Shown here in pieces: positions 51,699 to 57,623 of a DNA stretch of 64,000 bases (its first letter is position 1; each line of letters opens with the position of its first letter). The notes below the pieces were generated by a model. That model did no database searches. It saw nothing but the letters and a program-made list of their open reading frames with translations, and had not been told where the DNA came from. The stretch lies in NCBI RefSeq assembly GCF_003334405.1, contig NZ_QOWM01000003.1, one strand, 5' to 3'. Source of the stretch: Escherichia coli. GTDB lineage: Bacteria > Pseudomonadota > Gammaproteobacteria > Enterobacterales > Enterobacteriaceae. The position numbers and the translations under genes are program-made.

Positions 51699-52664
51699 CT
51701 ACAAATCCAACACCAGGCGTTTACCCTTCGCACGCGAACAACAGATCAACATACTTTGCTGGCTGGCACGCTCTTCATCGCTAAAATATTGATCCCGATG
51801 GTCAGCTTCACCTTCCAGTATTGCTGTTTCGCAGGTTCCGCATACCCCTTCACGACATAAACATTCCACTTTCGCGGCTTTATTATTTTCAATAACCTGC
51901 AAAATAGTCATCTCTTCCGGCACCACAAACTCTTTTCCGGAACGGGCAAGCACCAGGGTAAATGCATCGCCGGTTTTGTCTTCGATAGCAAATTGCTCAA
52001 AGTGCAGCGTATCGGCGGCGATGTCCAGACGCGCAGCTTCACTTCTTACCGCTTCAATTAGCGCCTCGGGGCCACAGGTATAAACGTGTGTGCCAGGTTC
52101 GATATCCGCCAATAATCGCGCTAATTCCAGTCGTGTTCCGGTTGATGAATGATGCAAATGGACTTTCTCAGCCTGCGGATGCTGGACTAGCTCATCACGA
52201 AATGCGCAACTTTCTGGATTTCGCGAGCAGTAATGTAGCTGCCAGTCGACGTCGCTGTGTTGCAGCTCTGCCATGTGCGACAGGAAAGGGGTGATACCAA
52301 TACCGCCCGCGATAAACAGATGCTTTCTGGCTGAGGGAATTAGCGCAAACAGGTTATTAGGCGTTGAAATCGTTAACCGATCGCCCACTTTTACCTGCTG
52401 ATGCAAAAAGCGGGAACCGCCGCGCGAGTTTTCCTCCAGCCGAACGGCAATCTGATAACAAGAGGTGTCATGCGGCGAACTCAGTAGTGAATACGCATTG
52501 CTGTACTGGTTATCACCATCGCTCATCTGCACAATGACGTGACTTCCTCCGGTAAACGCAGGTAATGGTTTGCCATCGGTTGCCACCAGCGTGAAGCGTT
52601 TCACCTGTTCGGTAAGGGGTTCAACCTGGCTCACCTGTACTTCAAACATTTGATAGTCTGACAT
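51699..52664 (-). CDS. yeaX: Carnitine monooxygenase reductase subunit (YeaX/CntB)
   Basis: Track ORF 321 aa; FNR-like flavin/NAD domain plus C-terminal plant-type [2Fe-2S] motif CREGVCGTC. Confidence 0.9.
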   Translation of the reverse strand: MSDYQMFEVQVSQVEPLTEQVKRFTLVATDGKPLPAFTGGSHVIVQMSDGDNQYSNAYSLLSSPHDTSCYQIAVRLEENSRGGSRFLHQQVKVGDRLTISTPNNLFALIPSARKHLFIAGGIGITPFLSHMAELQHSDVDWQLHYCSRNPESCAFRDELVQHPQAEKVHLHHSSTGTRLELARLLADIEPGTHVYTCGPEALIEAVRSEAARLDIAADTLHFEQFAIEDKTGDAFTLVLARSGKEFVVPEEMTILQVIENNKAAKVECLCREGVCGTCETAILEGEADHRDQYFSDEERASQQSMLICCSRAKGKRLVLDL

Positions 52665-52719
52665 TGCTGTACTCCATCAAAAATCAGCCCAGCGGCGGAA
52701 AATACCGCCGCCGATGTCA

Positions 52720-53844
52720 TTAGTCCTTAAACACCTGCGCCAGCAGATTATGGAAATGGGCGATACCATGTTCGGAAATGCCACTACCGCTACTGTCGGC
52801 CATGATGCGCCCCTGACCACGATAGCCACGCGATTTCAGCCCTTTCTGTACGCTTTCAACCAGACGTAAATCTTCCGGACGGAACACATCGCGATACCAC
52901 TCAATCAGCGATTTTTGCTCGTCGGTTAACTCTTCATTGGTGAAGTAAATATCGTAGTTTTGCAGGGTAGTTTCAGAATCCACCGGGAATTCATAAATGA
53001 CCGTCATCATCCCTTTGATCGGGGTGACGTTCAGCATCGTGCACGGCCACAGCCAGAAACCGTGGAATGCCGCATCCGTACCCTCTTCAAATTTAAACGA
53101 CTGTTCGGACGGTTTGGCGAAACCGTATTGCAGCGTCCAGTTACCGTGCATGGTGTGCCAGTAACGATCAACCTGTACGGAGTCGGAGAAACCTGGATGC
53201 GCCGGACCACAGTGATAGCACTCGAGATAGTTATCGACAATGTTCTTCCAGTTGGCAGGCGTGCGGGTGGTAAAGCGGGCCGCCAGTTTCAGATCGTGGA
53301 CTTCCGGGCAGGCTTCCAGCACTTTCGCGCCCAGGCCGGGTAATTGATCTTCTACGCTGGTGGCGTTGGGGTCCATGTTGATGAAGACGAATCCGGCATA
53401 TTCTTCCAGACGCACCGGAACCAGTTGCGCTTTGTCGCTATCGAAATTGGCGACGTTTTCGCAGTTACGTGCATGGGCCAGGTTGCCATCGAGTTTGAAT
53501 GCCCATGCGTGATACGGGCAGGTAATCACATTTTTTGCTTTTCCTTCACCGCTCAACAACTGATGACCACGGTGCGGACACACGTTATAGAACGCGCGCA
53601 AAACCTTATCACGACCGCGTACCAGCACGATGCTTTCGCCAATGATCTCACGCGTCACATAATCATTGGCATTCGCCAGTTCGCTGCTGTGAGCGACGCA
53701 AATCCAGCTTTTGGCGAAGACGTTCTCTTTTTCGTGTTCAAACGCGTTCTGATCGGTATAAAAACGGGCAGGAATGGTCCACGCCTCTTGCGGGTTAGCG
53801 CAAAAATTTTCGGGTAGTACAAAGTCAGGGCTCAGATTGCTCAT
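52720..53844 (-). CDS. yeaW: Carnitine monooxygenase Rieske oxygenase subunit (YeaW/CntA)
   Basis: Track ORF 52720-53964 trimmed to MSNLSPDFVLPENF... (374 aa); Rieske motif CPHRGH...CPYHAW seen. Confidence 0.9.
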   Translation of the reverse strand: MSNLSPDFVLPENFCANPQEAWTIPARFYTDQNAFEHEKENVFAKSWICVAHSSELANANDYVTREIIGESIVLVRGRDKVLRAFYNVCPHRGHQLLSGEGKAKNVITCPYHAWAFKLDGNLAHARNCENVANFDSDKAQLVPVRLEEYAGFVFINMDPNATSVEDQLPGLGAKVLEACPEVHDLKLAARFTTRTPANWKNIVDNYLECYHCGPAHPGFSDSVQVDRYWHTMHGNWTLQYGFAKPSEQSFKFEEGTDAAFHGFWLWPCTMLNVTPIKGMMTVIYEFPVDSETTLQNYDIYFTNEELTDEQKSLIEWYRDVFRPEDLRLVESVQKGLKSRGYRGQGRIMADSSGSGISEHGIAHFHNLLAQVFKD

Positions 53845-53875
53845 AGGGATACCTTTATCGTTAGGATGATGGCGC

Positions 53876-55321: not shown

Positions 55322-55511
55322 TACCTGTACGGCGGAACCTAACGTACGCGTAACAAAATTTGCATGTTACATAAATTAAACAATTAAGAATACGGAAAGC
55401 CATAAAACACGAAACGGAAACAATAAAAGGTGAAATGACGCAGGTTATTTACTGCAAAGAACGAATAAAAAAACCGCGTCAGTGACGCGGTTCAAATAAA
55501 CTGGTTTGACC

Positions 55512-56597
55512 TTAACGCAAAATAATTTTGCAAATCGCGTCGGCAACCTGTGGCGTGGTGGCATTGCCTTTCATATCAGGTGTTTTCGGCCCGTGAGCAA
55601 TCACTTCTTCAATTGCTGCCAGAATACCGTTATGCGCTTGCTGGAAACGCTCATCGCCATTGCCGAGAAAATCGAGCATCATTGCCCCGGCCCAAATCGT
55701 GGCGATAGGGTTAGCAATATTTTTCCCGTAGATATCCGGCGCGGAACCGTGGACAGGCTCGAAGAGCGACGGGAAAGTGCGTTCCGGATTCAGGTTGGCG
55801 GATGGGGCAATGCCAATGGTGCCGGTGCAGGCCGGGCCAAGATCGGAAAGGATATCGCCAAACAAATTGGACGCCACCACCACATCGAATCGTTCCGGCT
55901 GCATCACAAAACGCGCGCAGAGAATATCAATATGCTGCTTGTCCCAGCGGATCTCCGGGTAATTCTCGGCCATTGCTTCCACTCGCTCATCCCAGTACGG
56001 CATGCTGATGGCTAAACCGTTCGATTTAGTGGCAGAAGTTAGTGTCTTACGTGGACGGCTTTGCGCAAGTTCGAAGGCATAACGCAAAATGCGATCGACA
56101 CCACGGCGGGTAAATACCGATTCCTGAATGACGACTTCATGCTCTGTACCTTCATTCACTCTACCGCCGAGCGAGGAATATTCGCCTTCGGTGTTTTCCC
56201 TGACCACGTAAAAATCGATGTCGCCAGGCTGTTTTCCCGCCAGCGGGCAGGGAACGCCAGGAAAGAGACGAACCGGGCGCAGGTTGACGTACTGGTCGAA
56301 TTCACGACGAAATTTCAGCAGCGAACCCCACAACGAAATATGGTCCGGAACGGTATCCGGCCAGCCGACGGCACCAAAATAGATGGCGTCGAAACGGCTA
56401 AGTTGCTCATGCCAGTCGTCCGGCATCATTTTACCGTGATGGCTGTAATACTCGCAGCTCGCCCACTCCATTTGCTCAAAACTCAAGGCGAAGCCCCAGC
56501 GCTCAGCGGCAGCCTGTAACACGCGAATCCCTTCAGGAAGGACTTCTTTGCCAATCCCGTCTCCCGGGATCGCAGCAATACGCATCGTTTTCATCAT
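55512..56597 (-). CDS. dmlA: D-malate dehydrogenase (decarboxylating)
   Basis: Track ORF 361 aa, isocitrate/isopropylmalate dehydrogenase family. Confidence 0.92.
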   Translation of the reverse strand: MMKTMRIAAIPGDGIGKEVLPEGIRVLQAAAERWGFALSFEQMEWASCEYYSHHGKMMPDDWHEQLSRFDAIYFGAVGWPDTVPDHISLWGSLLKFRREFDQYVNLRPVRLFPGVPCPLAGKQPGDIDFYVVRENTEGEYSSLGGRVNEGTEHEVVIQESVFTRRGVDRILRYAFELAQSRPRKTLTSATKSNGLAISMPYWDERVEAMAENYPEIRWDKQHIDILCARFVMQPERFDVVVASNLFGDILSDLGPACTGTIGIAPSANLNPERTFPSLFEPVHGSAPDIYGKNIANPIATIWAGAMMLDFLGNGDERFQQAHNGILAAIEEVIAHGPKTPDMKGNATTPQVADAICKIILR

Positions 56598-56699
56598 TGG
56601 GTTCTCACTTCCTGACCATCAAAATTGACAACATCACCATCCTATAATTGACTGAAAAGGAATTAATCCCCGTAACTGGTGAAACATAAAACACGAATC

Positions 56700-57623
56700 A
56701 TGAATAATTTACCGCTGCTGAATGATTTGCGCGTCTTTATGCTGGTGGCTCGCCGGGCTGGTTTTGCCGCCGTGGCGGAAGAACTGGGCGTTTCACCGGC
56801 GTTCGTCAGCAAGCGCATCGCCTTGCTGGAGCAAACGCTAAACGTGGTGTTGTTACACCGCACCACCCGCCGCGTCACCATTACCGAAGAAGGAGAGCGG
56901 ATTTATGAATGGGCGCAGCGGATTTTGCAGGATGTCGGTCAGATGATGGACGAACTTTCTGACGTGCGTCAGGTGCCGCAGGGGATGCTGCGTATTATCA
57001 GCAGCTTTGGTTTTGGACGACAGGTGGTGGCTCCGGCGTTATCAGCGCTGGCGAAGGCGTATCCGCAACTGGAATTACGTTTTGATGTGGAAGACCGACT
57101 GGTCGATTTGGTCAATGAAGGTGTCGATCTCGATATTCGCATTGGCGATGACATCGCCCCTAATTTAATCGCCCGCAAACTGGCGACCAATTACCGTATT
57201 CTCTGCGCGTCGCCGGAATTTATTGCGCAACATGGCGCGCCGAAACATTTAACCGATCTTTCTGCATTGCCGTGCCTGGTCATTAAAGAGCGCGATCATC
57301 CTTTTGGTGTCTGGCAATTACGCAATAAAGAAGGCCCCCATGCGATTAAAGTCACCGGCCCACTGTCGTCTAATCATGGAGAAATTGTCCATCAGTGGTG
57401 TCTCGATGGGCAGGGGATTGCTCTGCGTTCCTGGTGGGATGTTAGCGAAAACATTGCCAGTGGTCATTTAGTGCAAGTGCTACCGGAATATTACCAGCCA
57501 GCGAACGTCTGGGCCGTTTATGTTTCAAGGCTGGCGACGTCAGCGAAAGTGCGGATAACGGTAGAATTTTTACGCCAGTATTTTGCCGAGCACTACCCGA
57601 ATTTTTCACTGGAGCATGCCTGA
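56700..57623 (+). CDS. dmlR: LysR-type regulator DmlR (YeaT)
   Basis: Track ORF 56679-57623 trimmed to MNNLPLLNDLRVFMLVARRAGFAAVAEELGVSPAFVSKRI... (307 aa); divergent from dmlA. Confidence 0.9.
   Translation: MNNLPLLNDLRVFMLVARRAGFAAVAEELGVSPAFVSKRIALLEQTLNVVLLHRTTRRVTITEEGERIYEWAQRILQDVGQMMDELSDVRQVPQGMLRIISSFGFGRQVVAPALSALAKAYPQLELRFDVEDRLVDLVNEGVDLDIRIGDDIAPNLIARKLATNYRILCASPEFIAQHGAPKHLTDLSALPCLVIKERDHPFGVWQLRNKEGPHAIKVTGPLSSNHGEIVHQWCLDGQGIALRSWWDVSENIASGHLVQVLPEYYQPANVWAVYVSRLATSAKVRITVEFLRQYFAEHYPNFSLEHA

Follow-up and report, generated by a model that had tools for sequence, protein, structure and literature searches.

Identity of the locus

The window analysed here, a stretch of 64,000 nucleotides of Escherichia coli contig NZ_QOWM01000003.1, carries at positions 51699–57623 the known E. 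coli locus yeaX-yeaW-yeaV/dmlA/dmlR, which is very likely the remnant of a single aerobic L-carnitine catabolic cluster. Its carnitine-to-trimethylamine (TMA) and D-malate halves belong to one ancestral pathway, not two, and that pathway is incomplete in the window: the aldehyde dehydrogenase gene msadh is missing, and a 225-bp deletion has removed the 5' end of the transporter gene yeaV. The locus and its enzymology are already established, and finding them adds nothing new in itself. In the literature that we searched, however, neither the existence of three alleles of the locus, nor the precise 225-bp lesion of laboratory strains, nor the 13-mer shared by its two upstream regions was described.

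An earlier note on this DNA had proposed a contiguous catabolic block in which a Rieske oxygenase, its FNR/[2Fe-2S] reductase and a BCCT transporter lie in tandem, followed by an isopropylmalate-dehydrogenase-like enzyme with a divergent LysR regulator. The listing of open reading frames (ORFs) in the window bears out this arrangement: all five frames occupy the positions proposed, four of them in tandem on the minus strand and transcribed in the order dmlA, yeaV, yeaW, yeaX, with dmlR divergent, and a Pfam domain search confirmed each of the five family assignments. Many complete E. coli genomes contain the 5.9-kb stretch with 100% identity; in them the genes are annotated as yeaX, yeaW, yeaV, dmlA and dmlR, and RefSeq names the products carnitine monooxygenase YeaW/YeaX, BCCT transporter YeaV, D-malate dehydrogenase DmlA, and DmlR. 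Positions 48509–62509 of the window are the reverse complement of K-12 MG1655 1876000–1890000 with only two substitutions in 14 kb, at 57043 and 62207. Two of the frames open upstream of their annotated starts. The mechanically called yeaW ORF comprises 414 aa from a TTG at 53964 that lies inside the end of yeaV; we rejected its 40 extra codons (53845–53964) as an over-extension artefact, the ATG at 53844 being backed by annotation and homology. The dmlR ORF opens at a GTG at 56679, and its annotated start is the ATG at 56700.

One ancestral pathway

The earlier note was right that carnitine and D-malate functions are both present, but the two are halves of one ancestral pathway, since carnitine cleavage ends stereospecifically in D-malate (PMC11353897). 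In the ancestral route, as demonstrated biochemically in Acinetobacter baumannii, carnitine is imported by the BCCT transporter and hydroxylated at C4 by YeaW (CntA), with electrons passing from NADH through the FMN/[2Fe-2S] reductase YeaX (CntB); the C–N bond then breaks to yield TMA and malic semialdehyde. The aldehyde dehydrogenase MSA-DH oxidizes malic semialdehyde to D-malate, which the decarboxylating dehydrogenase DmlA (MDH) converts to pyruvate and CO2, and the divergent LysR activator DmlR (CarR) controls the pathway genes. The stereocentre of L-(R)-carnitine passes unchanged through C–N cleavage and aldehyde oxidation, so that D-(R)-malate results. The route via D-malate has been shown enzymatically for the A. 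baumannii operon, and five E. coli orthologues were listed in that work (PMC11353897).

The A. baumannii operon, carR / mdh-bcct-hyd-cntA-msadh-cntB, shares with the window five orthologues in the same order and orientation, the divergent LysR regulator and the chemistry via D-malate, with protein identities between A. baumannii and E. coli of 45, 72, 56, 72 and 52% (PMC11353897; reproduced here). The window differs from it in lacking hyd and msadh, both of which are present in A. baumannii, and in having a 5'-truncated transporter gene; E. coli strains with this deletion allele do not grow on carnitine. The spacer between dmlA and yeaV differs as well, measuring 190 bp with a terminator-like hairpin in the window, 250 bp in intact E. 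coli and ~57 bp in Acinetobacter.

A scan with YeaW, taking one genome per species, yielded 80 loci, and in 56 of these dmlR is divergent from dmlA-yeaV immediately upstream of yeaW. The syntenic loci span Escherichia, Citrobacter, Yersinia, Serratia, Xenorhabdus, Pseudomonas, Acinetobacter and Vitreoscilla. It is extremely improbable that the TMA and D-malate modules are unrelated genes that became neighbours by chance, although a strong terminator-like hairpin does separate dmlA from yeaV and the role of dmlA and dmlR in growth on D-malate has reportedly been documented independently (Lukas et al. 2010, cited in PMC12294151). The same gene order recurs in Acinetobacter, Pseudomonas, Vitreoscilla, Xenorhabdus, Yersinia, Serratia and Citrobacter; D-malate ties the two modules together stereochemically and biochemically (PMC11353897); and the 13-mer TTCGTGTTTTATG is common to the upstream regions of both units. 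Chance neighbourhood is effectively refuted by the synteny.

Carnitine monooxygenase YeaW/YeaX

Judged from their sequences, YeaW (52720..53844, minus strand; 374 aa from the ATG), the oxygenase subunit (EC 1.14.13.239) with a Rieske [2Fe-2S] cluster and mononuclear iron, and YeaX (51699..52664, minus strand; 321 aa), the carnitine monooxygenase reductase of the phthalate-dioxygenase-reductase type (FMN, NAD, plant-type [2Fe-2S]), are orthologues of CntA and CntB, and both are full length with all published cofactor ligands. The yeaX gene lies 55 bp downstream of yeaW. YeaW contains the Pfam domains Rieske (E = 1.6e-23) and Ring_hydroxyl_A and matches the crystal structure of A. baumannii CntA (PDB 6Y8J) with E = 9e-197 over residues 4–371 of 374; its second-best PDB match is far weaker (E = 6e-33). 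The Rieske ligands C89/H91 and C109/H112, in the motifs CPHRGH and CPYHAW recorded in the earlier note, are present and are the residues given in PMC9508527. The docking residues R83, K104, K117 and E330 are likewise present (PMC9508527; PMC7948474). The mononuclear iron triad H211, H216 and D325 is present too, together with the bridging glutamate E208 and the quaternary-amine-binding tyrosine Y206; these five correspond to CntA H208, H213, D323, E205 and Y203 (PMC7948474), an offset of about +3. YeaX has the Pfam domains FAD_binding_6, NAD_binding_1 and Fer2, resembles phthalate dioxygenase reductase (PDB 2PIA, E = 2e-56) and contains the [2Fe-2S] ligands C270, C275 and C278, within the motif CREGVCGTC, likewise recorded in the earlier note, and C308, as well as residues R271, K313 and D320 (PMC9508527).

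The assignment of this pair to the carnitine-to-TMA type agrees with biochemical work, in which purified E. coli YeaW/YeaX converted L-carnitine to TMA with O2 and NADH and the E. coli subunits were functional in chimeras with CntA/CntB (PMC9508527). Glycine betaine monooxygenase GbcA/GbcB, from the group V quaternary-amine Rieske oxygenases, is built of the same two components. YeaW matches GbcA best among the NCBIfam models, yet at 154 bits against a cut-off of 670, and GbcB is among the NCBIfam matches of YeaX, yet at 74 bits against a cut-off of 500; with scores so far under the curated cut-offs, we ruled out that YeaW/YeaX are GbcA/GbcB. No NCBIfam model reaches its cut-off for YeaW or YeaX, so it is from the PDB match and the residue checks that both are placed in their families.

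Loss of msadh and absence of hyd

The 55-bp spacer between yeaW and yeaX in the window contains only a GC-rich hairpin followed by a T-run (52689..52714, minus strand; 10 pairs, 8 of them G–C). By tblastn coordinates this gap is 59 bp in three of four Escherichia loci and in O157:H7, the fourth being listed at the same value; it measures 1.5–1.8 kb in about three quarters of the related loci. In most relatives the gap holds an aldehyde dehydrogenase of ~486 aa, its content having been checked in two loci. One of these, from Citrobacter (L008), encodes a 482-aa aldehyde dehydrogenase that matches PDB 8S33 with E = 1e-212 and E. coli GabD (3JZ4) with E = 7e-211, and the gap ORF of the other, from Acinetobacter (L029), is visibly homologous to it.

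Citrobacter genomes with and without msadh both exist. The msadh-containing loci (e.g. L008 and L010) have the same gene order as the window, with protein identities to it of 90–94% for DmlR, DmlA, YeaV and YeaW and 77% for YeaX, and they share with it the dmlA terminator, the core of the 13-mer and blocks upstream of yeaV, but retain between yeaW and yeaX the 482-aa aldehyde dehydrogenase that the window lacks. The msadh-less Citrobacter keep the last msadh codons (…CAGAGGCTGTAA), followed by the hairpin that in relatives stands downstream of msadh. The hairpin at 52714–52689 is conserved in Escherichia, a similar one is found in msadh-less Citrobacter, and the E. coli hairpin lines up, by eye and without formal alignment, with that downstream of Citrobacter msadh. 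Given the relatives with msadh, the remnants of this gene in Citrobacter and the shared hairpin, the absence of msadh in Escherichia is a secondary deletion and not the ancestral state. The gene for MSA-DH has been excised and its downstream hairpin apparently left between yeaW and yeaX, where it looks like the scar of the deletion; it may also serve as a partial terminator that lowers expression of yeaX relative to yeaW.

The acylcarnitine hydrolase gene hyd is also absent between yeaV and yeaW in the window, where the spacer is 31 bp as opposed to ~1.1 kb in Acinetobacter loci. Any malic semialdehyde formed in the window strain would presumably depend on a paralogue such as GabD, which is 62% identical to MSA-DH (PMC11353897).

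Truncation of yeaV

The earlier note had the family of the BCCT transporter right, but the gene is truncated at its N-terminus and flagged as a pseudogene. What is left of yeaV (53876..55357, minus strand) lacks the first 43 codons, and its longest ORF (53876–55321, minus strand) encodes 481 aa from a TTG at 55321, which is the K-12 annotation b1801. This ORF passes NCBIfam NF007412 (968.8 bits against a cut-off of 647) and matches Pfam BCCT with E = 4.7e-115, in the first case over profile positions 56–536 of 536 only and in the second over model positions 46–485 only. Intact E. coli YeaV has 536 aa (P0002; O157:H7 and many others), and in a 100% identical genome the NCBI annotation pipeline (PGAP) calls yeaV a pseudogene, 'missing N-terminus'. 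Our literature search on yeaV found no description of the truncation, which is implicitly recorded through this pseudogene flag.

Pairwise alignment of the window with E. coli O157:H7 shows one clean 225-bp gap, with the deletion junction at 55357..55358 (55358|55357; …CATGCAAAT|TTTGTTACG… on the minus strand). The intact allele (O157:H7, IAI1; YeaV WP_000987525.1) is otherwise >98% identical to the window in nucleotide sequence; the YeaW protein is the same in both (WP_000067822.1), and both have lost msadh. A dN/dS analysis of the truncated allele was dropped because alleles this similar offer too little divergence. The window has thereby lost the ATG and codons 1–43, which encode the first transmembrane helix (TM1), as well as 97 bp of DNA upstream of the gene that contain the AGGAG ribosome-binding site and half of a predicted −10 box. 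Read manually, the promoter of the intact allele consists of TTGTTT, a 17-nt spacer and AATAAT and is sigma-70-like; the deletion cuts the predicted −10 hexamer, and by the same manual reading the implied start site lies ~59 nt downstream of the centre of the 13-mer TTCGTGTTTTATG. The lost 5' untranslated region (O157:H7 locus L002, 4838–4935) contains two stems, GGC…GCC and GGGC…GCCC with variable loops, that are kept from Escherichia to Citrobacter just 5' of the ribosome-binding site. Consensus folding of this leader found a double change in only 1 of 11 pairs, hence essentially no covariation, and we make no claim of an RNA element; Rfam contains no known RNA family matching the yeaV leader or the block, in the window or at the intact O157 locus. 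The outgroups E. albertii, other Escherichia species and Citrobacter all carry yeaV in its long form, which makes the 225-bp deletion the derived state.

An AlphaFold (AF2) model of the 536-aa YeaV (pLDDT 81.6, pTM 0.83) predicts helices at residues 10–29 and 31–69. The window ORF begins at residue 56 and, according to this model, would lack the first of these helices and most of the second; it has neither the full twelve transmembrane helices nor the native translation start. We consider it doubtful that the 481-aa protein made from the internal TTG is a functional transporter and the deletion neutral. Such a reading could point to the unbroken remaining frame, to the K-12 annotation, which treats b1801 as a normal gene, to the position of TM1 and TM2 outside the ten-helix core of BCCT carriers, and to a metabolomics screen in which yeaV overexpression and knockout shifted several metabolites including carnitine (PMC10971958). 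The shifts in that screen involved many unrelated metabolites, however, and with its native ribosome-binding site and ATG deleted the gene is left with a TTG that has only an AGG 3 nt upstream. In addition, all 28 of 28 aligned homologues keep the N-terminal helices, with D9, L12, P31, A38 and T46 invariant, solved BCCT structures align to YeaV from about residue 16, and PGAP calls the gene a pseudogene.

A separate case was seen in Escherichia whittamii (locus L005, 6194–6998), where the YeaV tblastn match starts at residue 214 and the apparent dmlA–yeaV gap is 804 bp, which suggests an independent disruption of yeaV.

Alleles of the locus in E. coli

We surveyed 5426 complete E. coli genomes, counting the deletion allele with an exact 60-nt junction probe (window 55328–55387). 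The 225-bp segment is present in 2931 genomes (54%), the exact deletion junction occurs in 1439 (26.5%), and almost all of the block is missing from about 1050 (about 19%). Among the carriers of the deletion are K-12 MG1655, W3110, TG1 and ATCC 8739, and E. coli B strain C3029 and E. coli C also match the window without the extra 225 bp. In the near-total-loss group, the segments corresponding to window 51723–56076 and 56250–57455 are gone, and only a 173-bp fragment of dmlA and the tail of dmlR are left. These three alleles (intact, 225-bp deletion and near-total loss) indicate that the locus is being lost stepwise within the species.

DmlA, DmlR and the shared 13-mer

The D-malate assignment of the isopropylmalate-dehydrogenase-like enzyme held up well. 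DmlA (55512..56597, minus strand; 361 aa), an NAD-dependent decarboxylating D-malate/tartrate/3-isopropylmalate dehydrogenase of Pfam family Iso_dh, passes the tartrate/D-malate dehydrogenase equivalog TIGR02089 over residues 2–358 (565 bits against a cut-off of 470.4), matches tartrate dehydrogenase PDB 3FLK with E = 1e-194 and is 72% identical to the D-malate dehydrogenase of the A. baumannii carnitine operon (PMC11353897; reproduced here). DmlR (56700..57623, plus strand; 307 aa from the ATG), a LysR-type regulator with an N-terminal HTH_1 domain and a LysR_substrate domain, is orthologous to A. baumannii CarR at 45% identity (PMC11353897; reproduced here). Its identification as TtdR was rejected, as the score of 357 bits is below the cut-off of 398. 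Residue 115 of DmlR, encoded at window position 57043, is Ser in the window and Leu in K-12 MG1655. DmlR is reportedly induced by D-malate. A role of dmlA and dmlR in growth on D-malate was reportedly described by Lukas et al. in 2010 (cited in PMC12294151). Both proteins are full length, and the two genes probably remain a working stand-alone module for D-malate utilisation in the window strain.

The 13-mer TTCGTGTTTTATG occurs exactly twice in the window, both times on the minus strand: one copy (55401..55413) lies in the retained yeaV upstream region, and the other (56685..56697) in the 102-bp divergent intergenic region between dmlR and dmlA, ~90 nt 5' of the dmlA ATG. None of 100 shuffles contained two or more copies. 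The core of the 13-mer, GTGTTTTAT, is kept upstream of yeaV in Escherichia, Citrobacter, Yersinia, Serratia and Xenorhabdus, and it is found at −95 to −98 upstream of dmlA in Escherichia, most Citrobacter, Yersinia and Serratia. On this evidence the pair is a candidate shared operator, or DmlR box. The hairpin at the 3' end of dmlA (55471..55493, minus strand), with 10 pairs followed by TTTTATT, resembles an intrinsic terminator, and its stem core CCGCGTCACTGACGCGG is identical in 10 of 10 aligned relatives from Escherichia and the Citrobacter group.

Expression and phenotype

The idea of a complete catabolic route was not borne out, as the msadh gene has been deleted and the 5' end of yeaV lost. 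In the window strain, yeaV-yeaW-yeaX is probably poorly expressed or cryptic; YeaV, if made from the internal TTG, would lack TM1, and carnitine is not expected to serve as a carbon source. It has been reported that carnitine does not support growth of E. coli K12, B or BL21, that BL21 extract has no detectable activity and that no expression of cntA/yeaW was found in public GEO data for K-12 (PMC11353897). Among these non-growing strains, we confirmed the deletion allele in K-12 and in a B strain. For O157:H7 Sakai, by comparison, yeaV and yeaW are among the up-regulated genes in growth-transition tables (PMC2241611); the O157:H7 strain examined here carries the intact allele, and the Sakai data are weak evidence that fits expression of that allele.

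A complete, working carnitine-to-TMA and D-malate unit in the window strain is therefore very unlikely, given that msadh is absent, that yeaV has lost its 5' end together with the ribosome-binding site and start codon, and that K12, B and BL21 fail to grow on carnitine while BL21 extract is inactive (PMC11353897). Such a unit would be consistent with intact YeaW, YeaX, DmlA and DmlR and with the in vitro activity of YeaW/YeaX (PMC9508527). A review table also lists K12, BL21 and DH10B as carnitine-positive (PMC6200775), of which at least the K12 entry refers to DNA used as a quantitative PCR standard and not to a culture assay; we accordingly discounted Rath 2017 as culture evidence for TMA formation by K-12, since K12 DNA served there only as such a standard.

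Several observations weigh against the view that the locus is a silenced remnant. GabD might substitute for MSA-DH, and other routes, e.g. CaiT, ProP and ProU, bring carnitine into E. coli. At least two defects, the lack of msadh and the truncation of yeaV, could explain why K-12 and B fail to grow on carnitine, and they are not separable here. A promoter scan of the region found nothing above chance (4 sites against 6.1 expected from shuffles), so the assignment of the −35 and −10 elements cut by the deletion is a manual reading. Finally, the metabolomics screen associates yeaV overexpression with carnitine depletion, with other metabolites shifting in both the knockout and the overexpression strain (PMC10971958), and if it was the 481-aa K-12 form that was overexpressed, truncated YeaV may still be partly active once it is provided with expression signals.

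It is also conceivable, if unlikely, that yeaW/yeaX act mainly on gamma-butyrobetaine, the end product of the anaerobic Cai pathway, to produce TMA and succinic semialdehyde, the latter being oxidised by GabD/Sad. The substrate would enter by other transporters, msadh and an intact yeaV would be dispensable, and the link to dmlA would be only historical. CntA orthologues, including that of E. coli, have high activity on gamma-butyrobetaine as well as on carnitine (PMC9508527, introduction), GabD is a close relative of MSA-DH (PMC11353897; PDB match of the L008 ORF), and msadh has been lost in several lineages in which yeaW/yeaX are still intact. However, no expression of yeaW was detected in public data sets for K-12 (PMC11353897), a role in gamma-butyrobetaine metabolism would suffer just as much from the predicted promoter damage, and ~19% of E. 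coli genomes lack yeaW/yeaX entirely, which argues against an important role.

Going beyond the reading of the locus as a remnant, we tentatively suggest, with more doubt than conviction, that the 225-bp deletion makes K-12, B and C natural regulatory and transport nulls, and that the 54% of genomes with the intact allele keep an inducible operon for conversion of carnitine or gamma-butyrobetaine to TMA, co-regulated with dmlA through the TTCGTGTTTTATG box and with GabD/Sad replacing MSA-DH. If laboratory strains are such nulls, their negative expression and growth results would not generalise, and the TMA potential of gut E. coli would be set by which of the three alleles is carried and not by the presence of cntA alone.

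Carnitine-derived TMA is a precursor of trimethylamine N-oxide (TMAO), which has been linked to cardiovascular disease, and the TMA potential of gut communities is estimated from counts of the E. coli cntA/yeaW gene (PMC5433236). Gene-presence surveys, as well as experiments in K-12, B and C strains with their damaged allele, may misjudge the capacity of wild E. coli. The allele survey is a useful footnote in this respect, and we regard the lesion, the alleles and the 13-mer as footnotes worth a bench test and not as a discovery.

Other features of the window

Next to the locus, the diguanylate cyclase gene dgcP has an uninterrupted frame in the window (59769–60923) and is flagged as a pseudogene with an internal stop in the O157:H7 strain examined (L002, 9344–9726). 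The only Rfam matches at the gathering score fall in three other regions of the window: the small RNA sroD in the fadD–rnd spacer (50407–50492), the overlapping SraC/RyeA and SdsR/RyeB pair (15265–15409) and a cspA-type thermoregulator leader (30898–31358). The G+C content falls to ~0.40 at positions 44000–45000, compared with ~0.51–0.54 in the surrounding DNA.

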